Below, in pieces: positions 1 to 25,500 of a stretch of DNA of 27,380 nt. The notes under the pieces were generated by a model, which was not told where the DNA came from, did no database searches, and saw only the letters and a list, made by a program, of their open reading frames with translations. The stretch is from a virus. Its lineage: Duplodnaviria > Heunggongvirae > Uroviricota > Caudoviricetes. Numbering within the stretch: the first letter of the stretch is position 1; the number at the start of each line of letters is the position of its first letter. A program made the position numbers and the translations under genes. Location of the stretch: the IMG/VR virus record IMGVR_UViG_3300010280_000022. One strand, given 5' to 3'.

Positions 1-2420
1 CATATATTATTTGCCGACCTATGTACATACGTATTTACTATCGGCTTAGATGAAGATGAACCCTTAGCTCTCGAACCATCGATAAGACAGTCAGACACTG
101 ACATAAATCCTGAAACAAGGTTGTTACTCACATCCCAATCTATGGCCATTTTGTCAAAATAAACACTGCCAAGCATATATGTTTTTCCACCAGAATAGCC
201 TACAAACCTACGTAATACACCACCATAATGCTTGATGTAACTCCTAGTCATTCCTGATGTGATATTCATATATACAATATCCATATTGCACTCAATTCCG
301 TAAAGGCAAGATGCATATTCTGATATGTGTCCAACATAACATACAACTTTACATCCAGTTGATTCAGATGGAGTCAATTTAATTACAGGAATATCTCTTG
401 TAGATGCATCATGATATGAAATTGCCAACTCAAATCTTGCGTCTTTACCATTAAAAGTGCTACCAGTAAAATCTATCAACGACGGCATTTTAAAGTCACG
501 CAAAGGTGATGGCTGTGTTTTAAAGTTATTTTTAAATGATAAAATATTGAGTGTTACCTCAGAAGGCCAGTATATATTCGTCTGTACAATTATATTCTTC
601 GGAAGATGTAAAGTGCGCGGCTGGACAGGGTTCCCGGACGCGATAACATTGTCTGAACGACACAAAATCATATCCACCAAACCGGATGAACCCTCTGGAA
701 TACGAACGGATCCCCCACGGACTATGAAATCACCTTTATGTTCACCGTAATCCGTACGTACTCCAAACGGCCCTATGTGAGAATTGATGATCTGTGTTGC
801 CTCGTCGAACGCCCCAGTACCAACCAAGACGCCGCCAGGTATCCGACAATTATCAACAAGAATCTTTGAGCACCCATAGTGCATGTGAAAGCTATCAATA
901 TTACTGTCTCTCACAACTACATCCCTGCAATAGTTGCCGTCAATAGACCTCCACCCCTTACCCACTTCGCAGCCGATAAAAGTATGTTTAAGGGTGTACT
1001 CCATAGCTACGGTATAACGAGAATTATTATCCGTCTGCGTAATACCCGCACTCGTTAATCTCCAGTTAACTCCGTAGGTGGTAGAGCTACCAAAAATATT
1101 AGAATCTGTAGCTGTCATCCCCATGTCATTAAAGTAAACAACCTCAACATCAACTAAAGAACGTTGGATATCAAAAGCATAGCGTGAAAATTGACCAGTG
1201 AAACGCGGCAATACAATTTTATTACGCTTAGTTGGTAGCTTAAATAACGTACAAGTTACGGGGTCGTTGTAAGTATTTTTAAGACTGTAAGCCAATTCCC
1301 CTGGCTTAGTCATAAAGTTCACTTCACCTTTATATCTTGGGCTGAATACACCACCAATCAACCTATAGAGATCAACCTCTGTTGGACTTATTATTTTGAC
1401 GAGCGAATTACCCCACCCTGCTAAATCCTCAACACAAGAAAAAACTGAGGTTAACTCGTTCAATGGGTATGTTGATATATTAACTTCCTTTATATAATTA
1501 TCATCATCCCTTTCATCTTTATACACAACCTTTCCGTTTGTTAAGTGGAAAGTACAATTACTCAAATCAAAATCACCATATAGATATGTTTCTTTATCTA
1601 TGGTGAAAGTTAGTGGCGCGCTTGAGTATATTTTTATTGGTGTATTTTTATACTTATAAAATATAGCATTAAGCTGATCACTATTCCGCTCACCGTCTAG
1701 TGCGCTTATATCATATATATATAATCTGTTTTCTAATCCACCAATTAACTTATACCCATCAGGTTTAGCTAATTCAATTAGAACGTCTGAGGCAGATCCA
1801 GATGGTGGTAATACGACAAATGGATTACCATCATTATCAAAAGCAACCATCTTGTTTGCTCTTTCAATAGCATCAGGTAAGGAAGGTATTGATTCAGGAA
1901 CACGAAGAGTTTTGCTTAGATTGCTACCAGCAAGCGTATCCACGTAATTTTTTGTTGCCGCATCCTGCGGAAATCTGGGATCTCTCAGGTTACGAATATA
2001 ATTGTTCAAAGCATCATAATAATTAGCAATAAATGATGGTTTACGCAGAGCCAACCTGAACCAACTTCTAACCTGCTGTATCAGCATCGTCAGTTTATCG
2101 AATGCGTCTTCATGCACCTCAGCGAAGAACTTACCCTGGTTGCGCAGATCGGTATCCTGCGTAACCGGTAGCTCTCTTGATATAGAAATCTGATAACCGT
2201 TAACCAACGCCTTCGACAGAATTACATTGCCGCCGTTATACCCTCCCGCACCAGTGACTATGTAATCAGTATCAAGAATCAGCTCTGTGATGTTCTCGTT
2301 CAGGTCAACAACCTGCACTACTAAATCAGATTTCTGGAAAATCCTGAAGGTATAAGGGAATGTCGTTGTAACACCGTTACCGGTGTATTCGTTGTGGTCA
2401 ACTTCGGTTGAGACCGTCAT
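1..2420 (-). CDS. Tailspike / tail fibre protein, 3'-truncated by window edge (at least 806 aa); T7 gp17-like N-terminal anchor domain plus AT-rich divergent C-terminal region
   Basis: Minus frame open from ATG at 2420 (GGAG 8 nt upstream) to position 1; absent from ORF track because no stop lies in the window. N-terminus MTVSTEVDHNEYTGNGVTTTFPYTFRIF..LVVQVVDL..DTDYIV fits the conserved podovirus tail-fibre N-terminal pattern. Confidence 0.8.
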   Translation of the reverse strand, partial: MTVSTEVDHNEYTGNGVTTTFPYTFRIFQKSDLVVQVVDLNENITELILDTDYIVTGAGGYNGGNVILSKALVNGYQISISRELPVTQDTDLRNQGKFFAEVHEDAFDKLTMLIQQVRSWFRLALRKPSFIANYYDALNNYIRNLRDPRFPQDAATKNYVDTLAGSNLSKTLRVPESIPSLPDAIERANKMVAFDNDGNPFVVLPPSGSASDVLIELAKPDGYKLIGGLENRLYIYDISALDGERNSDQLNAIFYKYKNTPIKIYSSAPLTFTIDKETYLYGDFDLSNCTFHLTNGKVVYKDERDDDNYIKEVNISTYPLNELTSVFSCVEDLAGWGNSLVKIISPTEVDLYRLIGGVFSPRYKGEVNFMTKPGELAYSLKNTYNDPVTCTLFKLPTKRNKIVLPRFTGQFSRYAFDIQRSLVDVEVVYFNDMGMTATDSNIFGSSTTYGVNWRLTSAGITQTDNNSRYTVAMEYTLKHTFIGCEVGKGWRSIDGNYCRDVVVRDSNIDSFHMHYGCSKILVDNCRIPGGVLVGTGAFDEATQIINSHIGPFGVRTDYGEHKGDFIVRGGSVRIPEGSSGLVDMILCRSDNVIASGNPVQPRTLHLPKNIIVQTNIYWPSEVTLNILSFKNNFKTQPSPLRDFKMPSLIDFTGSTFNGKDARFELAISYHDASTRDIPVIKLTPSESTGCKVVCYVGHISEYASCLYGIECNMDIVYMNITSGMTRSYIKHYGGVLRRFVGYSGGKTYMLGSVYFDKMAIDWDVSNNLVSGFMSVSDCLIDGSRAKGSSSSKPIVNTYVHRSANNI

Positions 2421-2524
2421 GTTAAATCTCCAGATAGTCGCAGCACCCGTTGCGCCGCATATCCGGTTATTCTATTACCTGAAAAACCATATATGGATAG
2501 ACAACCCATAAATACGAACAGATA

Positions 2525-2539
2525 TTACCTTTCAGGTGA
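2525..2539 (+). promoter_or_regulatory. Dyad motif site A: TTACC-TTTCA-GGTGA
   Basis: One of five intergenic copies of ATTACC-N5-GGTRA; lies between tailspike start and the LexA-box gene. Confidence 0.45.
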
Positions 2540-2578
2540 TTCGCAAAACGTGCTGGATAGCAAATAAATTATTTGATA

Positions 2579-2594
2579 CTGTATATTTATACAG
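2579..2594 (+). promoter_or_regulatory. LexA (SOS) box CTGTATATTTATACAG
   Basis: Exact CTGT-N8-ACAG with AT-rich core, flanks taCTGT..ACAGtt; preceded by TTGATA (2573-2578); 22 nt upstream of ATG at 2616. Confidence 0.75.
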
Positions 2595-2615
2595 TTATTG
2601 CATGGAGAAGATAAG

Positions 2616-2873
2616 ATGCAGCAGTATCACTATCCACTGGAAGACGGATTTACCGAAAGGATTCACACGCCGGGAGGCGTCAGATCACTGGTGGAGGGAT
2701 CGCACTTGATGAAATTACTCCGGGATCTCGATAAGGATGGATTTAATGTCGATGGCCCACTTGCCGAACTGACTGCACTGATTAACTACGTCACCAGCTC
2801 ACAGATGTCTATGCGGGATCTGCAAACACATCTCGACTATTGTGCCGAACAATTACGAAAACAAACCAGATAA
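2616..2873 (+). CDS. Small protein (85 aa) paralogous to the C-terminal domain of the adjacent antirepressor; candidate SOS-inducible antirepressor or modulator
   Basis: ORF-track frame 2598..2873 begins at TTG; in-frame ATG at 2616 has GGAG 8 nt upstream. Motifs P.GV..L.E.S.LM.LL..L..DG..V.G..AELT and LRD.QTH..Y are shared with residues ~150-231 of the 3189..3884 protein. Confidence 0.7.
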   Translation: MQQYHYPLEDGFTERIHTPGGVRSLVEGSHLMKLLRDLDKDGFNVDGPLAELTALINYVTSSQMSMRDLQTHLDYCAEQLRKQTR

Positions 2874-2904
2874 GGTTTGCAATTACCAAGTGGAGTGCTT
2901 ATAT

Positions 2905-2919
2905 TTACCTTTGCGGTAA
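2905..2919 (+). promoter_or_regulatory. Dyad motif site E: TTACC-TTTGC-GGTAA, nested in a longer inverted repeat
   Basis: Perfect TTACC/GGTAA arms; flanked by AAGTGGAGTGCT (2888-2899) and AGCACTCCTCTT (2928-2939), inverted with one mismatch. Confidence 0.45.
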
Positions 2920-3010
2920 ATTTACATAGCACTCCTCTTGTGCCATAGTAATCGGGCACTGGCAAAATCCAGTGCCGGGATTGGCGTCCCGGATTACTAA
3001 AAGGCGCATT

Positions 3011-3031
3011 CACCGCGCAAGCGGTTTTTTT
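3011..3031 (+). terminator. Rho-independent terminator between the small LexA-controlled gene and the antirepressor gene
   Basis: Stem ACCGC/GCGGT with GCAA loop followed by six T. Confidence 0.6.
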
Positions 3032-3188
3032 ATGCGTATAGCACGGCCACATTCGTATTATGGTGGGCTGTGTGGGGGCACCGAAAGGTGCGCCGGGTCC
3101 TTTTAGCCGGTTACGCCAACCCTGCACAGTTCACCACCAACCGATTGGCGTCGGTAGTGGTGATTAACCAGACTAAAAGGTAACCACT

Positions 3189-3884
3189 ATGACAGCTACA
3201 AAAAGCACGTCCATTTTTTCTTTCGAATCCCAAGCCGATATACGGGTAATCGTCATTAATGGTGAGCCATGGTTTATCGCTTCAGATGTTTGTCGGGCTA
3301 TAGGCATAGCAAACCATCGAGATGCTGTTCGAAAACTTGATGATGATGAGAAGGGCGTCGCTTCAACCGACACCCCTGGCGGTGAGCAAGAATCGATCAT
3401 CATCTCCGAGTCAGGCCTCTACACACTGATCCTCCGCTGCCGCGATGCGGTGACACCAGGCACTATCCCATACCGCTTTCGTAAATGGGTTACAGGTGAG
3501 GTTCTTCCTCAGATCCGCCGCACCGGAAGTTACATTAAAAACTCGCTCACGCAGGAAGAACGCATAAAGATGGTTGCCGACCAGGTAGCCAACGCCACGG
3601 CGTCAGCAGTGATGCAGGCGATGAAGATAGAGAACAAAACCTACAGTGCCCCACTGAAGCCCGGCTACCGCAGCCTGATTCATTCGCCGTCTGGTGTTCT
3701 CGGCCTGACGGAGAACTCACTGCTGATGAATTTGCTGAACCAGTTACAGGAAGACGGGCACGATGTATCGGGCGCGGCGGCGGAACTGACCACCATGTTC
3801 TGCTACATCGTCGGTGTGAGCAAATGCCTGCGTGATATCCAGACTCACGCGGAGTACATCAACGACAAAGCAGGATTCTTCTGA
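3189..3884 (+). CDS. Bro-N family phage antirepressor (231 aa)
   Basis: N-terminal IRVIVINGEPWFIASDVCRAIGI...LDDDEKGV is the Bro-N/antirepressor signature; AAAAGG upstream of ATG; long structured leader. Confidence 0.8.
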   Translation: MTATKSTSIFSFESQADIRVIVINGEPWFIASDVCRAIGIANHRDAVRKLDDDEKGVASTDTPGGEQESIIISESGLYTLILRCRDAVTPGTIPYRFRKWVTGEVLPQIRRTGSYIKNSLTQEERIKMVADQVANATASAVMQAMKIENKTYSAPLKPGYRSLIHSPSGVLGLTENSLLMNLLNQLQEDGHDVSGAAAELTTMFCYIVGVSKCLRDIQTHAEYINDKAGFF

Positions 3885-8049: not shown

Positions 8050-9743
8050 ATCCCCCGGTTAATCATACAGGCGGCAAATGCCCGGAAAGCGTTGCTCATG
8101 CTATTGTCGCTGGCGTCGGTACGAATATCATTGAGTTTCTGGCGCAACGTGGTCGCAAGATCAGGGTTATCGACAGCGATATCGTCAAGCAGGGCGTTAC
8201 TCAGGTTGAGCTCGTTATCAAGGTCTGCAGCGGCAGCGGTAATTTCATGATCTGCCTTTTGCGTTTCTTGATAAACCCGATCGGCTGTTTCGCTTGCTGG
8301 GCGAGCCGTTTCATCAACCTGCCGTGCCGGGTTCTGTATGCGATGGATGGCGCGTTCACGCAGTGCCGGTTTGTGCAGTTCATAGAAGGGCTCAACATCT
8401 GGGCTACGTCCTTCCATCATGTGTGCCAGCGCAGCGCGATACGCCTGCTGGTTCACGTTCCAGTCAGCATCCCTGATGGCGCTTGCGGCAGTGCGAACTG
8501 CGCCAGCGACCGGCGACATCTGCATGCCGTCCAGGATCTGCTGCGCACGCTCGGAAATGGTGACTTTCAGGTCGTCGGGGATCTCGCCGCGGGAAATCTG
8601 AGACTGGCGCCAGCGCGCCTGCTCTGCTGTCGCGTGCTGCTCCAGCGATGTGTTGATCTCCTGATTGCGTGCAGCGATGGCGTCTTTCTCGGCCTGAATC
8701 TCTTTCAGTGCCCTAGAGCGCGCATCCTTAAACTTCATCCGCTGCCCCTGATACTTTTTGGTGCGCTGCTGCAGCGTCGCATCAAGCGAGTCAGCATGAC
8801 GTTGATTAGCCGCAAGCTCGGCACGCAGGTCGGCAACGTTACCGATCTGCCCGCTCTGTAACTCCTGCTGGCGCGCCATATAGTCAGGAACCACGTCGTC
8901 ATAAGCCCGGCTGTATGCGTAGCTCTCCGCTTCACTGGAAATGGCCGCCGCCAGATCTGCATTAGCGCCAACCTCAGGGATATTCACGCCCGCCGGAATG
9001 TTGTCAGGCGTTATCACCGGGGTTGGCTGCGCATCGCCAGAAAACGCCGGGGACTCTCCCGTTGCAGCATCGGGAACGCGACGCGGTCGCACGATATCGG
9101 CGATAAGGCCGCCGCCGGCATGCATTAGACCGCCAGCCATCGTGTTAAAGAAAGTACTTTCCAACGCGTTGCTATAGGTGAAGTCGTCACCTTCCGCCGC
9201 CGCTGCCAGCCCGGTAAGCGGCACGGTCACCACAGCCTGCGCTGCCCCCATGCGTGCACCAGCAACAAATCGCTCGCCAAATCGGCCAAGCACAGAAGCT
9301 GCCTTTGCTTCTCCAGCGAACGGAACCAGCGCCAGCGCCACGTTACCAGGATCTGCCATTGAACCAGCTAGGCTGGCTGCGAAATTAAGCGGCGTGGCTA
9401 CCCATCCGCTCGGTGCCGACATCGCGATCTGCTGGCGTGCCAGAGAATCTTTGCGTTCGGCAATAACATGATCGAGAAAAGCCTGCGTAACGCCAGAATC
9501 TGGCACGTTTATGCTCTTTACGCCGTACTGCTTCAGGAGCTCATCCGCTTCCTGCTTACTGATAACTGTAGAGTTTGGGTCATTCGCCAGCGAGTCGGCC
9601 TGCGCAAAGCGGTAGCCGGACATGACCGGCCCCTCTTCAAATCCCTGCTTAAGGGAAGAAAGCAGCGATTCGCCAAGCCCTGCTGGCGCGTTGCCAATTG
9701 GCTGGTTAATGCCCTGTCCCGGATCATCTGTGTAAATTGGCAT
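8046..9743 (-). CDS. Internal virion/ejection protein (565 aa)
   Basis: Long Ala-rich ORF, ATGA overlap with downstream gene, in the internal-core block. Confidence 0.65.
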   Translation of the reverse strand: MPIYTDDPGQGINQPIGNAPAGLGESLLSSLKQGFEEGPVMSGYRFAQADSLANDPNSTVISKQEADELLKQYGVKSINVPDSGVTQAFLDHVIAERKDSLARQQIAMSAPSGWVATPLNFAASLAGSMADPGNVALALVPFAGEAKAASVLGRFGERFVAGARMGAAQAVVTVPLTGLAAAAEGDDFTYSNALESTFFNTMAGGLMHAGGGLIADIVRPRRVPDAATGESPAFSGDAQPTPVITPDNIPAGVNIPEVGANADLAAAISSEAESYAYSRAYDDVVPDYMARQQELQSGQIGNVADLRAELAANQRHADSLDATLQQRTKKYQGQRMKFKDARSRALKEIQAEKDAIAARNQEINTSLEQHATAEQARWRQSQISRGEIPDDLKVTISERAQQILDGMQMSPVAGAVRTAASAIRDADWNVNQQAYRAALAHMMEGRSPDVEPFYELHKPALRERAIHRIQNPARQVDETARPASETADRVYQETQKADHEITAAAADLDNELNLSNALLDDIAVDNPDLATTLRQKLNDIRTDASDNSMSNAFRAFAACMINRGM

Positions 9744-9744
9744 G

Positions 9745-12366
9745 TTATCGTCCTGATTGCTGGCCGTTCTGGAAAATGTTAATCAGGTTGTCGCGCTGAC
9801 TTTCTGCGCTGTATTCCTTAGACTGTCCGGGAGTATATTTCACCGGCGTATCAATGAACTTGGTAATGCTGTTCCATACTGATCGGTTGGTTGCTCCCAG
9901 TTTCGCCAGATCGTTGAACGGCACCGTAATCGGGTTGCCGTCGGCACCGTTGACGATCAGCCCGTTGAGCATCAGGGTAAGTCCTGTTTCGTCGCTGTTG
10001 GTCACCCACTGCGCATTATCACGAATGCGGGAGATACTCTGCTCACGGTTGACCTCATCAGGTAGCCTTGGGTCACCAATAAGCGGCATAATCTGATCTG
10101 CTGACAGGTTTTTCAGATACGCATTGGCACCATCGTTAACGTCACGAATATCTATCCCTGCACGATTAGGTAGCCGCCAAGTGCCATTGGTCTGGTACTG
10201 CTCGCCGAGGATGTCCTGATACGCCTGTTTTGCTGCATCAGACGCCGACATTCCGCGCTGCATGTTGATGTAAGTAAGTCGTTTTCCCTGCTCGTTGAAG
10301 TTATTCCACACGGCAGTGCCACCAGGCTGAACAACCATCGTGCCAGCAAAATCTTTCGATTGGTCATTCCATGACGAGTCGGCGCTATCCGCGTCGGTTT
10401 TCTCAAGACTGCCGCGTAAGTCAGCAGTTTTAACGCTACGGTTTTGCCAGAGCGCATTTGCCGCGCGCGGGTTCTCGGTAGCCATGACAACCTGCAACGC
10501 AGGATAAGCGCTCTTCTGAACCTGCTGCATCACCTGATCCGAGTATTTGCCGAACGACTGCGCCACCGACTGAATGGCCTTAACGCTAGATTCCTGCGTG
10601 TTGTCAATACGCTGCAGTACATCATTGACCATGGACTCCGGTAAAACTTTTTTGCTCATTATCCCCAGGCGGTCTTTTTCAGACTGTATGCGGGAAACTA
10701 GGTATTCACCAGATGAAGGGTCATTCAGGTACTGCTGGAATGCAGCCTGCACAACCGGAGAGTTTTGTTGCAGCCATGCCCCCGGATCCGCTTCCCGCGC
10801 CTTCAGTACCTGCCCAAGCTTGACCTTTGCCGATGCATAAAGCTCTGCTTTGTATTTAAAGTCAGGGTCGTTTTCCTGCGGTGCCATTGCCTGCACGGCG
10901 GCGGTACCCTGCTGGACGTTGCCCTGCATAATGGTCTGATAAACAGGTTGTAGCGTCATTGCCTGCTGGTATTGCTGGAAGGTTTTTTCCATCTGCAGGC
11001 GCTCGGCAGGCGCTGCCTGAAGCGGCATAACGGCGGCCCATTCGTGCGCTGAAATAGGCGTCACCTGCTTACCGGCCTCAATTTTGGATAGGTCGTCCTG
11101 CATTCGACTCTGTAGCGCAACGCGACCGGCTGAAGCCTGCATGTCGTACATGCCAGCAACCTTGCTCATCATCTGCGACTTTTTGTCCGGACTCATGGCG
11201 TTCCAGAATGGCTGTGCGATGAGGTTTTCCATCGTCGCAGATCCAGGAATAGCTCCAGCACTGCCAGTTACTTTTGCCACATAATTGCGCGTCTCGTCGT
11301 ATGGGATAGCTGCGGCAAACTGGGCGTTACTGACTTCGCCTGTGCGCGGATCGCCAATCTGTTTAATCCAGCCGTCAACCTTTCCTGGGCCAGCGTTATA
11401 GGCAGCTACTGCCAGAACCGGGTTATTGTCGTATTTCTTCATCTGCGCGCCGAAATAAGCTTGCCCCAAGCGGGCATTATAGCGCGGGTCATTCAACCAT
11501 TTATCGCGGTCCCACGGCACGCCAGCAAGGCGGGCAGCTTCGGGGCCAGTATCTTCCGTCACCTGCGCTACGCCAACAGCGCCTTTTGGCGACACCAAAG
11601 GTGTTCCGTCCTTTCCGTACTGATTTCCGCCACTCTCCTGCCAGATTATTGCAGAGAATAACTGCGCCTCACTCGGTGTATCGGTTACCTCAATCTTGCC
11701 GTTCGGACCCATGATCTGTTGATACATCGGCACATACCACGCCTCCGCCGCACCGTTCGCGGCATTCTCGCGCCACGAAACCCAGTTCTGTTCTATCTCT
11801 TCCTGACTCTGGCCGTGGGCTTCGCCGTAAGCGATGATGCTATGATATGCCTTCAATCCTGCCTGGTTTGCCATTGTCGGGTTACGGAACTGCATCGATA
11901 GGTTTTTTAGTGTCGCATCCTGCATATCCGCCTCATACTGGCGAACCTGTCCTATTTCGTACCTCCCGGCCTGCGTAGTGAACTGAATGCGCTGCTGCTG
12001 CGCCTGCTGCATGAAAGCATTACGAGCCTGTTCATCCGGCAGCGACATAGCCAGTTGTTCGACCTGAGCATCAAACTGCTGCGTATACTCCTGACCTTTT
12101 CCAATAGCATTTTTCCCTTTCAGGTTAAGCAAACCTGTTTCAGGGTTATTCAGCAGATCGCTGCCTGTCTGACTGAGTTTAAGGGATGCCTCCTGAACCA
12201 AGGCAATATTGGTACGCTGTTTTGCCTGACCCAGAACATCAATTGCCTCTGTCCCTGCCCGAACAAAAGCATCACTAATACCTGGCTGAGAAAACGTCTG
12301 CAAGCCTGCTGACTGAACTCCACGACTCTCAACCTGACGTCCCGATGTTGTTGGTACAACTGGCAT
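9745..12366 (-). CDS. Internal virion protein with lytic transglycosylase (SLT) domain (873 aa)
   Basis: IIWQESGGNQYG..GAVGVAQV...AYNAGPG at residues ~235-335 is the SLT catalytic signature (nt ~11362-11664). Confidence 0.8.
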   Translation of the reverse strand: MPVVPTTSGRQVESRGVQSAGLQTFSQPGISDAFVRAGTEAIDVLGQAKQRTNIALVQEASLKLSQTGSDLLNNPETGLLNLKGKNAIGKGQEYTQQFDAQVEQLAMSLPDEQARNAFMQQAQQQRIQFTTQAGRYEIGQVRQYEADMQDATLKNLSMQFRNPTMANQAGLKAYHSIIAYGEAHGQSQEEIEQNWVSWRENAANGAAEAWYVPMYQQIMGPNGKIEVTDTPSEAQLFSAIIWQESGGNQYGKDGTPLVSPKGAVGVAQVTEDTGPEAARLAGVPWDRDKWLNDPRYNARLGQAYFGAQMKKYDNNPVLAVAAYNAGPGKVDGWIKQIGDPRTGEVSNAQFAAAIPYDETRNYVAKVTGSAGAIPGSATMENLIAQPFWNAMSPDKKSQMMSKVAGMYDMQASAGRVALQSRMQDDLSKIEAGKQVTPISAHEWAAVMPLQAAPAERLQMEKTFQQYQQAMTLQPVYQTIMQGNVQQGTAAVQAMAPQENDPDFKYKAELYASAKVKLGQVLKAREADPGAWLQQNSPVVQAAFQQYLNDPSSGEYLVSRIQSEKDRLGIMSKKVLPESMVNDVLQRIDNTQESSVKAIQSVAQSFGKYSDQVMQQVQKSAYPALQVVMATENPRAANALWQNRSVKTADLRGSLEKTDADSADSSWNDQSKDFAGTMVVQPGGTAVWNNFNEQGKRLTYINMQRGMSASDAAKQAYQDILGEQYQTNGTWRLPNRAGIDIRDVNDGANAYLKNLSADQIMPLIGDPRLPDEVNREQSISRIRDNAQWVTNSDETGLTLMLNGLIVNGADGNPITVPFNDLAKLGATNRSVWNSITKFIDTPVKYTPGQSKEYSAESQRDNLINIFQNGQQSGR

Positions 12367-22009: not shown

Positions 22010-22086
22010 GTGGCATTAGCTCAGTCGGACAGAGCAACCGCCTTCTAAGCGGTTGGTCGCAGGTTCGAATCCTGCATGCCACGCCA
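22010..22086 (+). tRNA. tRNA-Arg (anticodon UCU, reads AGA), phage-type
   Basis: Acceptor stem GTGGCAT/ATGCCAC, D-arm AGCTCAGTCGGACAGAGC, anticodon loop CTTCTAA, T-arm GCAGGTTCGAATCCTGC, discriminator G plus CCA. Confidence 0.85.
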
Positions 22087-23127: not shown

Positions 23128-24599
23128 GCATATGGATCGTACTCGGTAAGCGCCTTGCCTTGCTGGTTCTGCTGCCCGGGAAGTCGCAGGCGCTTTGACA
23201 CCGGGAAAGCAAACGTCAGCAGTAGCGCATCGCCTTTACCAGGCGAACGCCCAAGCCGCTCCTTGATATCTTCCTTCGGTTCGATAACGATTTTACCGTC
23301 CACTCGAACTTTGTACTCTGCCGCCGACAGATCGTCCGCTGTTTCCTGGTCATCCAGCATCCCGCCCAGCCTCAGCCATGTCTTGCATGAGTTGAACATC
23401 TCCCCACGCTTGTTGAGCATCTGCGGGTCAGTAGACGCGCCACCGAACGGAACAAGTTGCCATGTGCGCCCCCAACCGTCACCGATTGACTTCAGACCGG
23501 TACCGTAACCAAAGTCGATGAACACTGCGTCAGCCTGATACAGGTCTTCAAAGTCAGCGATACGCTTCGCCATAATCAGATCGTCGGTAGTCTTGTTGCC
23601 AGTCCACAGCACCTTACTGTGTAGCCCCTGCCGCAGGTATATCACCGCGTCATCAACGCCTGAATATGCCGGGTCAACACCGATTATCACCGGAGCATGC
23701 GCCACCTGCGCAGCGGTTACCACCCGTTTCATTGCCTCATCAGTAAGACCGGTAGGGATAAACTGCAATTCAGATGCATCAGGGAATATGCCGCGCACAC
23801 GGATTTTAACGAAGTCGCTGTCTTCCCCGTAGTCATCAACCCATTTCTGCAACTGCTGTTTGTTAGTGCCTTCCACCGTCCGGCTGTCAATCTGCGCAGT
23901 TTTCCAGCGGTGTTTATATTTGCGGAAACATTCGCGGAAACGCCCGGTGTTACGTGTAGGGTTTCCGAACGCCACCCAGATAATCTCAGTGTCTTCGTCC
24001 GTAAGCGCACCCTCAGCAACTTCCCACACCAGATCCGCAATGTTCGACGCTTCATCGAATACCACGATGATGCGTTTGCGCTCGTTGTGTAGTCCGGCGA
24101 ATGCCTCAGTGTTGTGCTCAGACCAGGGGATTGCGTCAGCTCGCCACCGCTTGTCGTGCCCAGGATCATTGCTGTACATCGCGGTAGCGGTACAGGTAAA
24201 CCAGTCTTTCGTGATAGCAAGGTTCGACCACTTGATAATTTCCGGCCAGGTCTTCGTTCGTAGCTGGTTGTCGGTGTTGGCAGTCACCACGACCTTACAA
24301 TCCTCGCAAGTGGACATGCCCCAGTTGATCAGCATTGAGATGAATGCTGATTTACCAATACCGTGACCCGAAGCGCGTGCCAGCATAAGCGGCTGATAGC
24401 GCGTCTCTGGATTCTGCAGGTGATCACGTATCTCTCGGAACGCATCGGCCTGCCACTGACGTGGGCCGGTAGCATGTGCCAGTTCAGTCCCCTCTTCCCC
24501 CCACGGGAACGCATAGAGGGCATAGCCAAGCGGATCGTGAGTGAACCCTGCAATATCCTCGATCAACTGCTCTTCAGGAGATAACGCTGTATCTGTCAC
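23124..24599 (-). CDS. terL: Terminase large subunit (491 aa)
   Basis: Walker A-like ASGHGIGKS, Walker B-like IIVVFDEAS, C-terminal nuclease-type acidic motifs; GTG start overlapping the terS stop. Confidence 0.85.
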   Translation of the reverse strand: MTDTALSPEEQLIEDIAGFTHDPLGYALYAFPWGEEGTELAHATGPRQWQADAFREIRDHLQNPETRYQPLMLARASGHGIGKSAFISMLINWGMSTCEDCKVVVTANTDNQLRTKTWPEIIKWSNLAITKDWFTCTATAMYSNDPGHDKRWRADAIPWSEHNTEAFAGLHNERKRIIVVFDEASNIADLVWEVAEGALTDEDTEIIWVAFGNPTRNTGRFRECFRKYKHRWKTAQIDSRTVEGTNKQQLQKWVDDYGEDSDFVKIRVRGIFPDASELQFIPTGLTDEAMKRVVTAAQVAHAPVIIGVDPAYSGVDDAVIYLRQGLHSKVLWTGNKTTDDLIMAKRIADFEDLYQADAVFIDFGYGTGLKSIGDGWGRTWQLVPFGGASTDPQMLNKRGEMFNSCKTWLRLGGMLDDQETADDLSAAEYKVRVDGKIVIEPKEDIKERLGRSPGKGDALLLTFAFPVSKRLRLPGQQNQQGKALTEYDPYA

Positions 24600-25192
24600 T
24601 GATTACCATCCTGACGTTCTTTGAGTCGCTTCCTGGCTGCTGCTATGCGATCAGCAATTGTCACATTCACATTAACATCCAGACGTTCTTTGAACGCGTT
24701 GACATCAACATGCTTACCAATCAGCTCAAGGTTCTTCACCTTGTCAGGCCATTTAATTTTTTTGAGGATTGTCTCTATCGAATCCTCGTTCATGTTCATG
24801 ATGGTCGATGACAGATCAAAGCCACTAAGCGTAGTGCGCCAGATTTTCGGCCACTCACGGATTGGTTTAAGGCTCCCATCGTCGTTGAGGATGTCGATCA
24901 CGTCCATCTGGTCGATCTCCACCAGGCGCATGAGAACGTAATCAGCACTGACGCGCATTCGTTTGTTGCGCTCCTCCATCAACTCGGCAATCCGTTTTTG
25001 AATGCGTTCATCGCGCATCATGACACTGGCTTTAACTGCCGCTGTATTTGGGGAGAATCCTGCGTTAATCGCTGCCTGAGTCTGGTTTTCAGGCGTTTTG
25101 ATGTATGACTGGCAATAAGCCTCCTGCATTGCTGTGAGCGGCTTAAATTGCGTTGATTTGCGTTTATAGGTTTTAGGTTCAGCAGGCATCAT
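24596..25192 (-). CDS. terS: Terminase small subunit (198 aa)
   Basis: ...LELIGKHVDVNAFKE... is a terminase small-subunit type signature; start moved to ATG at 25192 because the first 26 residues of the ORF-track call are a Thr/Ile-rich read-through. Confidence 0.65.
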   Translation of the reverse strand: MMPAEPKTYKRKSTQFKPLTAMQEAYCQSYIKTPENQTQAAINAGFSPNTAAVKASVMMRDERIQKRIAELMEERNKRMRVSADYVLMRLVEIDQMDVIDILNDDGSLKPIREWPKIWRTTLSGFDLSSTIMNMNEDSIETILKKIKWPDKVKNLELIGKHVDVNAFKERLDVNVNVTIADRIAAARKRLKERQDGNQ

Positions 25193-25201
25193 AACCACCG
25201 T

Positions 25202-25231
25202 GGTAATAGTTACCGTTGTGGTAATAGTACC
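25202..25231 (-). repeat. Tandem palindromic repeats GGTAATAGT(T)ACC x2 in the terS leader
   Basis: Copies at 25202-25214 and 25220-25231, 10-40 nt upstream of the terS start. Confidence 0.5.
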
Positions 25232-25232
25232 A

Positions 25233-25261
25233 TGCAAAATAAAGCCGCCATAGTTGGCGGC
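25233..25261 (-). terminator. Rho-independent terminator between the nin-like genes and terS
   Basis: Minus-strand GCCGCCA-ACTA-TGGCGGC followed by TTTATTTTG. Confidence 0.6.
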
Positions 25262-25266
25262 AGTAT

Positions 25267-25500
25267 TCAAAGTCCATCAAATCCATCGTAAAAACTCTCG
25301 TCAAGATACCCTTCCCATTTACCGCGAATGAAAATTACATCCTCGCCGCAAGGGTGCTGACTGTCGATAACTATATCCCTCCTGGCGCAACCATACTTAT
25401 GCATGAGAAATTTAACCTCTTTCGGAAAATTTGCTGAGTTATCTCTCATATCTTCAAGGTCGTAGCGTATTTTTGGCATAACACCTTCGTGACATGTCAC
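25267..25500 (-). CDS. Hypothetical protein (77 aa)
   Basis: ORF in a compact minus-strand array with overlapping stop/start codons. Confidence 0.5.
   Translation of the reverse strand: MTCHEGVMPKIRYDLEDMRDNSANFPKEVKFLMHKYGCARRDIVIDSQHPCGEDVIFIRGKWEGYLDESFYDGFDGL

Follow-up and report, generated by a model that had tools for sequence, protein, structure and literature searches.

The leader of an antirepressor gene in an epsilon15/phiV10-like Escherichia coli prophage carries an IsrK-like RNA and a c4 antisense RNA

The antirepressor gene and its upstream region

The window in this study, the whole stretch of 27,380 nucleotides that was analysed (IMG/VR record IMGVR_UViG_3300010280_000022), is an epsilon15/phiV10-like (Uetakevirus) E. 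coli prophage. DNA similar to the locus described here was present in 998 of 5,426 complete E. coli genomes. The genes and the elements upstream of the leader RNA are as follows.

2577-2596, plus strand: LexA box TACTGTATATTTATACAGTT, read from the sequence
2616-2873, plus strand: 85-aa gene following the LexA box, paralogue of the C-terminal domain of Ant
2887-2940, no strand assigned: outer inverted repeat (arms 2887-2899 and 2928-2940) enclosing the operator dyad
2905-2919, no strand assigned: operator-like dyad TTACC-TTTGC-GGTAA ("site E"), from a pattern count and relatives
2921-2949, plus strand: predicted sigma-70 leader promoter with -35 TTTACA (2921-2926), a 17-nt spacer and a TG-extended -10 CATAGT (2944-2949)
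3189-3884, plus strand: ant, antirepressor of 231 aa with a Bro-N and a C-terminal domain, from Pfam and PHROG

The gene regulated by the leader is ant. Its product matched Pfam Bro-N (E = 2.2e-21) and PHROG 130, "anti-repressor Ant" (E = 5e-63). In phage vB_EcoP_ZX5, the gene under a 98%-identical DNA match is ORF4, annotated as "anti-repressor", and overexpression of ORF4 shifted that phage towards lysis (PMC9782041). The 85-aa protein shared 43% identity over 74 aa with the C-terminal domain of Ant (BLASTP, E = 1e-16), and both proteins matched phrog_450.

The predicted promoter aligned with the P1 promoter P1c4 (= P51b; TTGACC / TATAGT) and with the Gifsy-1 isrK promoter. Transcription is predicted from the sequence to start at about G2956, and position 1 of the Rfam isrK model fell on window position 2956. 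The dyad abuts and overlaps the -35 box. TTACC-N5-GGTAA sites occurred about 7-8 times in the window against 0.43 expected, and 0 of 100 shuffles reached 8. The half-sites were retained in Tyrion with another spacer and in phiV10 with an inverted spacer, and the position of the dyad corresponds to that of the P1 C1 operator Oc4 (former Op51). Site E, which the original prediction had placed within a structured leader, is a DNA operator and not an RNA element, and is predicted from sequence to bind the prophage repressor.

The repeats and hairpins named in that prediction were all found in the sequence where it had placed them. The outer arms, CAAGTGGAGTGCT (2887-2899) and AGCACTCCTCTTG (2928-2940), are 13 nt long and 92% complementary, and the inner dyad arms lie at 2900-2909 and 2915-2924. 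An RNA function of the outer repeat in the ant leader is nevertheless improbable. Its hairpin (2885-2942; -24.8 kcal/mol, z = -6.8) was the most stable local hairpin in the shuffle comparison and would be contained in any read-through transcript from the upstream LexA-controlled gene. However, the leader RNA is predicted to start downstream of the repeat, which is not followed 3' by a T run. The right arm serves as the promoter spacer and was kept in all E. coli variants aligned, whereas the left arm, which goes with the upstream small gene, was replaced in JNE25-001, UTME-14 and Tyrion without a compensating change. The outer repeat is therefore not a conserved RNA helix.

The IsrK-like RNA, the c4 RNA and their shared targets

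Two known Rfam families, both above their curated thresholds, were found on the plus strand downstream of the predicted promoter, so the leader is not an unknown riboregulator. The elements of the leader RNA are as follows.

2956-3031, plus strand: IsrK-like short RNA / 5' leader, from Rfam RF01394 and the MFE structure
2981-2987, plus strand: target a1, TTGGCGT, in the loop of IsrK hairpin 2
2997-3004, plus strand: target b1, CTAAAAGG, single-stranded
3012-3031, plus strand: intrinsic terminator ACCGC-GCAA-GCGGT followed by T7, from the sequence
3056-3141, plus strand: c4 antisense RNA, from Rfam RF01695, fold and covariation
3099-3106, plus strand: b', CCTTTTAG, in the loop of c4 hairpin 2
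3113-3119, plus strand: a', ACGCCAA, single-stranded, 3' of c4 hairpin 2
3141-3154, plus strand: small hairpin CCGA/UCGG, whose loop shows a2
3145-3151, plus strand: target a2, TTGGCGT, in the loop of the CCGA/UCGG hairpin
3157-3163, plus strand: conserved GUGGUGA with two alternative pairings
3173-3180, plus strand: target b2, CTAAAAGG, which includes the Shine-Dalgarno AAAGG 8 nt before the ant ATG (3189)

The isrK family RF01394 matched over its full length (model 1-77 of 77) with 77.9 bits against a gathering score of 50 (E = 2.4e-15). The family c4-a1b1 (RF03163) scored 45.1 bits at 2943-2995, just under its gathering score of 46.7, and the stronger isrK match covers the same stretch. In the MFE structure, hairpin 1 spans 2956-2975 and hairpin 2 spans 2976-2991 with a1 in its loop; here b1 lies 3' of both hairpins. 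The hairpin-1 loop CAAAAU, a candidate c4 target from the Rfam name "a1b1", is not complementary to c4 here, and in other loci it reads UUAUAAAGC or the inverted AUUUUG. The promoter-like site and the terminator stand where isrK would have them and align in sequence with Gifsy-1; the terminator is the GNRA-loop terminator of the original prediction. Folding of the IsrK part reached a z of only -2.3, weaker than that of c4 (z = -4.7).

The repeats of this part were present as described, namely GGCACTGG (2955-2962) with CCAGTGCC (2969-2976) and TAGTAATC.../...GATTACTA (2946-2959 with 2986-2999, 86% complementary). The GTAATC...GATTAC stem was considered as an RNA unit and set aside, since its first bases fall within the -10 box and so precede the start predicted near 2956. 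It could form only in read-through transcripts from upstream and is probably no RNA unit.

The C4 family RF01695 also matched over its full length (model 1-87 of 87), with 77.7 bits against a gathering score of 45 (E = 7.3e-14). The RNA has a 17-bp closing stem, hairpin 1 (3078-3091, GCACC-GAAA-GGUGC) and hairpin 2 (3092-3111). The MFE structure of c4 (-45.6 kcal/mol) was identical to the family structure. The second GAAA hairpin of the original prediction is real, but it is the first internal hairpin of c4 and probably not a separate unit of the 5' UTR. The 3' end of c4 reads CACCACC, and this and an AU|GG junction align, as sequence features, with the ends of mature P1 c4, whose coordinates were taken from the annotation of the P1 record. 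By homology with P1 c4, mature c4 is predicted to be the 77 nt at 3062-3138, released from a longer leader precursor, and its 5' end to be generated by RNase P. That this enzyme processes C4 is stated in PMC11143913, which cites Hartmann et al. 1995.

Two direct repeats, overlooked in the original prediction, are the functional core of the leader. GATTGGCGTC occurs at 2979 and at 3143 and ACTAAAAGG at 2996 and at 3172, and c4 has an unpaired stretch complementary to each of them. The c4 surfaces a' and b' are accordingly complementary to a2 and b2 downstream, where b2 covers the ribosome-binding site of ant, and to a second target set, a1 and b1, upstream in the same predicted transcript.

We then compared this locus with others from IMG/VR. 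The set comprised 89 copies of c4 with 57 different sequences, among them 30 versions of b' and 13 of a'. Pair counts and RNAalifold used 47 loci with differing specificities, and own-target matching, with a threshold of at least 7 nt, used 48 specificity combinations. At a fixed position, the own target was matched in 46 of 48 combinations for a2, 41 for b2, 37 for a1 and 25 for b1. When partners were swapped between loci, the match fell to 2-4% (4% for b2 with swapped b' loops). The a':a2 pairing was formed in 98.8% of cells with 81 double-change cells, against 27-39% in slid controls, and a':a1 in 98.1% of cells with 78 double-change cells; slid controls over both a' pairings gave 20-50%. 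In Tyrion, a Uetakevirus relative that is about 78-83% identical at the locus, a', a1 and a2 carried joint compensating changes. The a'/b' sequences and their targets change together and reassort between loci, and sequence variation in the leader coincides exactly with the four targets and the two surfaces of c4. The end of b2, GGA/AGG, stood shortly before the ATG in nearly all loci. Duplex energies at the single locus were not better than those of shuffled queries, a':a1 excepted, so the case rests on the comparative data. The a' and b' sequences appear to set immunity specificity.

Folding and covariance, two of the checks proposed with the original prediction, were applied to the leader. 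The stretch 2956-3200 folded with z = -4.7, and none of 200 shuffles folded equally well. RNAalifold found compensatory changes in all intramolecular helices of IsrK and c4, with many compensatory pairs in all three c4 helices; covariance upheld these helices and the target pairings, and not the outer inverted repeat. Together, the two Rfam matches and the targets that covary across 47 loci bear out the idea of an RNA gating the antirepressor.

The conserved GUGGUGA has two partners. In the precursor only, it can form a helix with 3131-3137, the 3' side of the closing stem of c4; this helix was paired in 97.9% of cells, with 20 double-change cells and four pairs changed on both sides. Alternatively, it can pair with ACCACUA (3183-3189), a segment containing the first base of the ant start codon, and b2 then lies in the loop. 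This second helix was part of the RNAalifold consensus, with AU in 24 and GC in 17 at one pair.

Comparison with known antirepressor control systems

The c4 RNA of P1/P7 immI is known from Citron & Schuster 1990, as cited in PMC7313666, PMC8198154 and PMC12197685. It has the same fold and the same predicted 77-nt size as the RNA here, with b' in the second hairpin loop and a' single-stranded 3' of it. The order a1-b1-c4-a2-b2 is common to both, the spacings are nearly equal (a1-b1, 16 nt here and 14 in P1; a2-b2, 28 nt and 29), and the order of the elements, from the operator through to b2 with the Shine-Dalgarno and the ATG, is identical to the P1 annotation. P1/P7 immI also has b2 over a Shine-Dalgarno, a repressor operator upstream and an antirepressor in the operon. 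The systems differ in a' and b', which would mean a different immunity specificity. In P1, icd lies between c4 and ant, whereas the window has no icd and b2 lies directly on the ant Shine-Dalgarno; ant is of the Bro-N type here and Ant1/2 in P1. A clear intrinsic terminator stands between b1 and c4 in the window, while the alignment shows only a weaker counterpart in P1. The operator here is the symmetric TTACC-N5-GGTAA, a dyad sequence that the annotated P1 C1 operator does not have, and the window element is an integrated podovirus prophage, unlike the plasmid prophage P1.

Salmonella Gifsy-1 has the promoter, terminator, c4-like RNA and antirepressor in the same order as the window (RF01394; PMC4825925). 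The window matched the isrK family over the full length, and the Gifsy-1 a1 (UUGGCGU) and a' (ACGCCAA) are identical to those here. In Gifsy-1, IsrK binds Hfq and acts in trans to promote translation of the read-through mRNA, and compensatory mutants G28A/C162U and G31A/C159U have been described (PMC4825925). We found that the G28/G31-C162/C159 pairing maps exactly onto a1:a' (UUGGCGU / ACGCCAA). The b' and b2 sequences differ, Gifsy-1 b2 being AUCACCGGAGG. The Gifsy-1 antirepressor AnrP begins MTTQIS, in common with the downstream proteins here that match Pfam ORF6N and in contrast to the Bro-N type. The Gifsy-1 locus adjoins a Q-like antQ gene, whereas this locus adjoins a tail-fibre gene (by the phiV10 annotation) and the LexA-controlled Ant paralogue.

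In APSE phages of Hamiltonella (LR794147; PMC7313666), c4 and isrK are annotated immediately before a Bro-N gene, arranged as in the window, and the authors noted that a' and b' match the region upstream of this gene (PMC7313666). The host and phage group are different, and so are the APSE-7 specificities (a' UAGUCUCAA, b' CCUUGUUAG). The IsrK authors pointed to a structural analogue in satellite phage P4, the CI RNA with seqA/seqC (PMC4825925). It is likewise processed from a leader and pairs with sequences up- and downstream of itself; unlike the system here, it causes transcription termination of replication genes.

These results indicate that the locus is a clear copy of a known type of switch, made of the c4 antisense RNA of P1/P7 and the IsrK RNA of Salmonella Gifsy-1; it is real but ordinary. 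Very probably, the leader upstream of ant is an immI-type antirepressor control module as in P1/P7 and Gifsy-1 (IsrK followed by STnc1160). A literature search for c4 in Uetakevirus/epsilon15 phages found nothing.

Proposed mechanism and alternative readings

In the following scheme, the promoter and its start site, how efficiently transcription terminates, and cleavage by RNase P are inferred from sequence and homology. In the lysogen, the operator at 2905-2919 overlaps the promoter and would keep it mostly off. Transcripts would start near 2956, and by homology many may end at the terminator (3012-3031), giving an IsrK-like RNA of about 76 nt that carries a1 and b1. Read-through RNA would carry c4 and, as suggested by homology with P1, release its 77-nt form. 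The b' loop would then pair with b2 on the ant Shine-Dalgarno, and single-stranded a' with the a2 hairpin loop. Covariation shows the a':a2 and b':b2 pairing itself; its consequence, judged from P1, would be that ribosomes are kept off ant. In P1, c4 pairing leads to premature transcription termination. Because b2 lies directly on the ant Shine-Dalgarno with no icd between, Rho-dependent polarity of the P1 type may not apply alike here. The a1 and b1 targets would compete for the same c4 surfaces, acting in cis as a lock on the read-through RNA and, as Gifsy-1 genetics suggest, giving relief in trans as the short RNA.

A control of the Gifsy-1 type overlaps with this scheme and does not exclude it. 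There, the read-through RNA would fold into a silent form, the IsrK-like RNA would activate it in trans, ant would be translated only through coupling to an ORF starting at ATG 3060, and free c4 would be secondary. Gifsy-1 shares a1 and a', supplying IsrK in trans increased translation of anrP over 100-fold in that prophage (PMC4825925), and the precursor-only helix between 3131-3137 and 3157-3163 is conserved and covarying. An ORF is indeed present from ATG 3060, an AUG in the 5' strand of c4, to a stop at 3165-3167. However, this frame, 35 codons long in the window and corresponding to Gifsy-1 "orf45", is not conserved as a protein: over 84 loci it ranged from 14 to more than about 79 codons, with no stop within the examined stretch in 43 loci and a stop inside c4 in 12. 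A conserved leader peptide was rejected on the ORF length. ATG 3060 also has no Shine-Dalgarno, and by P1 homology the RNase P cut is predicted between U3061 and G3062, within the AUG itself. Direct occlusion of the ant Shine-Dalgarno by b', which covaries with b2, is the simpler account, and we consider the coupled scheme possible but rather unlikely.

The original prediction had drawn an analogy with P22 immI. On that reading, an opposite-strand antisense RNA would overlap the ribosome-binding site of ant, and the dyads would be operators for repressors of the Arc/Mnt type. The gene context is indeed similar, since an antirepressor gene follows a structured region with a dyad operator, and an inverted repeat can fold on either strand. 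The logic of P22 sar, a small RNA that limits antirepressor translation at the ribosome-binding site besides a protein repressor, is also the same. However, sar lies on the opposite strand and overlaps its target, whereas c4 here lies upstream on the same strand with short dispersed complementarities, and sar has no homology in sequence or structure with this leader. The region 2400-3300 contained no minus-strand promoter-like site. The c4 stretch folded on the minus strand no better than shuffles (z = -1.2, against -4.7 on the plus strand), and G-U pairs of the conserved helices fit the plus strand only. Rfam gave no sar match, while isrK and C4 were both on the plus strand, and the interval from the operator to ant has no small gene of the Arc/Mnt kind. 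The sar-type reading was therefore rejected as extremely improbable. A cis attenuator or riboswitch that decides termination at 3031 in response to a ligand or protein, without a trans RNA, has only a little more to commend it and is very unlikely. A terminator does lie within the leader, and the IsrK authors raised a possible modulation of the terminator by downstream RNA (PMC4825925). In Rfam, however, no riboswitch family matched even at E values up to 10, and the joint variation of the four targets and the two c4 surfaces fits RNA-RNA specificity rather than a ligand pocket.

Returning to the immI-type control of ant, IsrK and c4 appear as separate systems in the literature searched. We tentatively raise the idea that the IsrK-like RNA and c4 form a co-transcribed pair of decoy and antisense RNA whose ratio is set by read-through at 3012-3031, and that the precursor-only helix links processing to the ant start. 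This may be so, although the odds are somewhat against it. If it were true, Ant output would be a threshold function of promoter activity. The helix 3131-3137/3157-3163 would rival both the closing stem of c4 and the pairing that hides the start codon of ant, and RNase P processing of c4 would be tied to exposure of the ant start site. The P1 model, in which c4 represses, and the Gifsy-1 model, in which IsrK activates, would then merge into one mechanism.

The module brings no new principle beyond what follows. It gives the correct annotation for a stretch that is unannotated or "hypothetical" in phiV10-like phages, and a probable account of how an experimentally active antirepressor is silenced in phages of the vB_EcoP_ZX5 type. 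The published Gifsy-1 IsrK mutants affect a pairing, a1:a', that belongs to a c4 system, and this connects the two literatures.

The c4/IsrK module in the ant leader

The whole window was scanned against Rfam at curated thresholds, and three matches were obtained. Two lie on the plus strand in the leader of the antirepressor gene ant (listed below), and the third is a distant tRNA. A second, permissive Rfam scan placed c4-a1b1 (RF03163) at 2943-2995 with 45.1 bits, slightly below its threshold of 46.7, and gave no riboswitch match. Compared with shuffled sequence, folding reached z = -4.7 for both 2956-3200 and 3056-3141 and z = -6.8 for 2885-2942, and was weaker for 2956-3033 alone (z = -2.3). 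The terminator at 3012-3031 was detected by pattern scan. All inverted repeats of the original prediction were found at its coordinates. Its idea of an RNA gating antirepressor expression was correct in concept; the analogy chosen, P22 immI, was wrong, as sar had no match in the permissive scan.

In this study, we found two direct repeats that the prediction had overlooked, GATTGGCGTC at 2979 and 3143 and ACTAAAAGG at 2996 and 3172. Both have a complement in the stretch separating the copies: ACGCCAA (3113-3119) and CCTTTTAG (3099-3106). They correspond to the unpaired segments a' and b' of the antisense RNA c4 and to its upstream (a1, b1) and downstream (a2, b2) targets.

Features of the ant leader (plus strand)
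2956-3031: isrK match (RF01394), 77.9 bits, threshold 50
2981-2987: a1, UUGGCGU, loop of IsrK hairpin 2
2997-3004: b1, CUAAAAGG, unpaired
3056-3141: C4 antisense RNA match (RF01695), 77.7 bits, threshold 45
3099-3106: b', CCUUUUAG, loop of c4 hairpin 2
3113-3119: a', ACGCCAA, single-stranded
3145-3151: a2, UUGGCGU, loop of a 4-bp hairpin
3173-3180: b2, CUAAAAGG, includes the Shine-Dalgarno sequence

The Shine-Dalgarno sequence AAAGG inside b2 is 8 nt upstream of the ant ATG (3189). A five-way alignment included the window, P1, Gifsy-1, an Stx2a phage and the Uetakevirus relative Tyrion. In it, the -35 (TTTACA) and the TG-extended -10 (CATAGT) of the window fell on the P1 promoter P1c4 (former P51b) and the Gifsy-1 isrK promoter. 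The predicted start, near G2956, falls on the first position of the isrK model. Judged by the ends annotated for its P1 homologue, mature c4 in the window would be 77 nt long (3062-3138), with CACCACC at its end.

Over 1.4 kb around the leader, the window shares 96-98% identity with Escherichia phages vB_EcoP_ZX5, TL-2011b, phiV10 and O157 typing phages 9/10, epsilon15-like podoviruses of the genus Uetakevirus, and similar DNA is present in 998 of 5,426 complete E. coli genomes. Annotation of the locus in public records is limited to 'hypothetical protein', a Bro-N or 'anti-immunity' protein and one terminator (phiV10); no RNA gene is annotated there. The results strongly support that the leader feature is genuine and belongs to a known c4/IsrK-type system, which was described in 1990 in P1/P7 and studied in Gifsy-1 in 2016. 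No paper in the searched literature connects c4 with Uetakevirus phages. The system was placed in Rfam from comparative work of 2010 (PMC2864571).

Covariation of the pairing segments

A degenerate c4 pattern was scanned over IMG/VR, and 120 loci were obtained, 89 of them with a 16-17/17 closing stem. Among these 89 copies, 57 c4 sequences, 84 loci, 30 b' loops and 13 a' segments are distinct. One representative per a'/b' combination (n = 48) was examined for Watson-Crick matches (7 nt or longer) at the canonical position, with partners swapped between loci as control. The locus's own segment matched a2 in 46 of 48 cases, b2 in 41, a1 in 37 and b1 in 25 (36 at ≥6 nt), and swapped partners matched in 2-4% for each target.

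In a 47-sequence whole-leader alignment, 98.8% of a':a2 cells were paired (27-39% in slid controls), and 81 cells, spread over 5 of the 7 pairs, were changed on both sides. For a':a1 the figures were 98.1% and 78. From the 47 sequences, RNAalifold recovered both hairpins of IsrK (1 and 2), both of c4 and the closing stem of c4; 20 of 42 pairs showed compensatory changes. Covariation across homologues, the check proposed with the original prediction, thus revealed conserved and compensated pairings. Since the short duplexes within the window's single locus, except a':a1, were no better than shuffled queries, the evidence is comparative, not thermodynamic. In Tyrion (~78-83% identity at the locus), a' is UAAGACCAA and both a1 and a2 are UUGGUCU, by sequence a three-way compensation in a related phage. 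The window's b' is combined with two other a' types elsewhere (loci L018 and L110); therefore, the two specificity determinants reassort.

The stems of IsrK hairpin 1 (2956-2975; columns 28-47 of leader alignment A3) covary, and its loop is not complementary to c4. This loop exists in a few discrete forms: most loci share GCAAAAUC, a further group has UUAUAAAGC, and locus L019 carries an inverted AUUUUG.

One possible partner of the conserved GUGGUGA at 3157-3163 is 3131-3137, the 3' strand of the stem that closes c4 (97.9% paired, 20 double changes in 47 loci). The alternative partner, 3183-3189, includes the A of the ant AUG; pairing with it would leave b2 in a loop, and this helix also covaries in the 47 loci. 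The two helices are likely the published 'alternative structures' and, speculatively, may couple c4 processing to translation or ant start-codon exposure.

Operator-like dyad and outer inverted repeat

The dyad TTACC-TTTGC-GGTAA (2905-2919) abuts the -35 box. With at most one mismatch, TTACC-N5-GGTAA occurs at 8 sites in the whole window against 0.43 expected (2525, 2905, 3959, 5118, 21673, 22290, 25192 and 25210). Several are near gene starts: 2525 is upstream of the LexA-controlled gene, 3959 just after ant, and the tandem dyads 25192 and 25210 are in front of ORF 24596-25270, upstream of its internal MMPAEPK methionines. Tyrion retains the half-sites around another spacer, and phiV10 around an inverted one. 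The dyad at 2905-2919 is best read as a predicted prophage-repressor operator, the counterpart of P1 Oc4, and the sites together look like a scattered operator set of one repressor, recalling the many C1 operators of P1.

In phiV10 (L001, ~1925-1950 against window 2900-2925), the spacer is reverse-complemented, GCAAA versus TTTGC, between unchanged half-sites, and a 3-bp deletion adjoins the -35 box. A tRNA-Arg gene (anticodon UCU, 22010-22086) lies within the prophage between the operator-like dyads 21673 and 22290. In E. coli strain 3908 (L132, ~330-420), a deletion fuses the 85-aa gene, reduced to its 5' part, directly to the leader promoter at its -35 region, and the dyad is lost; prophages of this type might express the leader constitutively.

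The outer inverted repeat was considered as a conserved helix of the ant leader. In all E. coli variants its right arm (2928-2940), which forms the promoter spacer, is conserved. Its left arm (2887-2899) occurs only in lineages with the upstream 85-aa gene and is replaced in JNE25-001, UTME-14 and Tyrion with no compensating change, so this reading was rejected. The repeat may instead be a 3' hairpin of the upstream mRNA.

Relation to P1 and Gifsy-1 and proposed regulation of ant

The P1 record has the order C1 operator Oc4, promoters P2c4 and P1c4, a1, b1, c4 (77 nt), a2, b2, icd and ant1/2. Its a1 and a2 are both TTGACAG, b1 is GTTAGTGC, and b2, GTTAGTGA, extends into the GAGG Shine-Dalgarno sequence of icd. 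The window contains the same parts in corresponding positions, and in both c4 RNAs b' is in the second-hairpin loop and a' in the single strand after it. Spacing is 16 nt in the window versus 14 in P1 for a1-b1, and 28 versus 29 for a2-b2. However, icd is absent from the window, so ant itself is the direct target, and this ant encodes a Bro-N type protein, unlike P1.

With IsrK numbered from the first model position, the first G of a1 is Gifsy-1 G28 and the last is G31, and C162 and C159 are Cs within a'; both segments are identical in the window and Gifsy-1. In Gifsy-1, the silent 'structure A' is defined by the published mutant pairs G28A/C162U and G31A/C159U, which are compensatory, and IsrK in trans activates translation of the antirepressor gene anrP (PMC4825925). 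These experiments therefore concern the a1:a' pairing of a c4-type system. The same report likened IsrK to CI/seqA/seqC of P4 and mentioned STnc1160, a processed RNA located downstream (PMC4825925). IsrK and c4 were still separate entries in a 2025 review (PMC12197685), and in an APSE phage the two are annotated next to each other, upstream of a Bro-N gene (PMC7313666).

The RNA module is a portable cassette, followed across loci by Bro-N, ORF6N, Rha, KilA-N and P22_AR_N genes and by small genes without a Pfam match. The small frame from an AUG inside c4 (Gifsy-1 'orf45'; 35 codons in the window) showed no conserved length across loci. Annotated frames span isrK and c4 in phage SfV (L007, orf37 'immunity region', 825-1661) and Hafnia phage yong2 (L005, 'Ash family protein', 988-1671), and both probably reach too far in the 5' direction; SfV has an ATG with a preceding Shine-Dalgarno sequence after b2. 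Locus L043 (IMGVR_UViG_2671181028_000005, 9652-11216, minus strand) has three tandem IsrK-c4-gene cassettes 656 nt apart, each with a different a'/b' specificity and a following ~120-aa gene, and L079 and L123 have two cassettes apiece. Such arrays of distinct specificities may deserve separate study.

The leader is homologous to both RNA families and P1-like in architecture, and its a'/b' complementarity co-evolves with both target sets, b2 overlapping the ant Shine-Dalgarno sequence. By analogy with P1 and Gifsy-1, the operator would keep promoter activity low in the lysogen, and many of the transcripts made would stop at 3031 to give an IsrK-like RNA. RNase P cleavage of read-through transcripts would release c4 (PMC11143913). 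This RNA would block ribosome binding at ant, and a1/b1, in cis or on the short RNA, would compete for c4 and relieve repression.

A near-consensus LexA box (TACTGTATATTTATACAGTT, 2577-2596) lies just upstream of the 85-aa gene (2616-2873). Its product shares 43% identity with Ant residues 150-223, the C-terminal domain (E = 1e-16), and a phrog_450 match is common to both proteins. The phage thus seems to encode two antirepressor-type proteins with one domain in common, of which the short one would be SOS-controlled and the long one controlled by c4.
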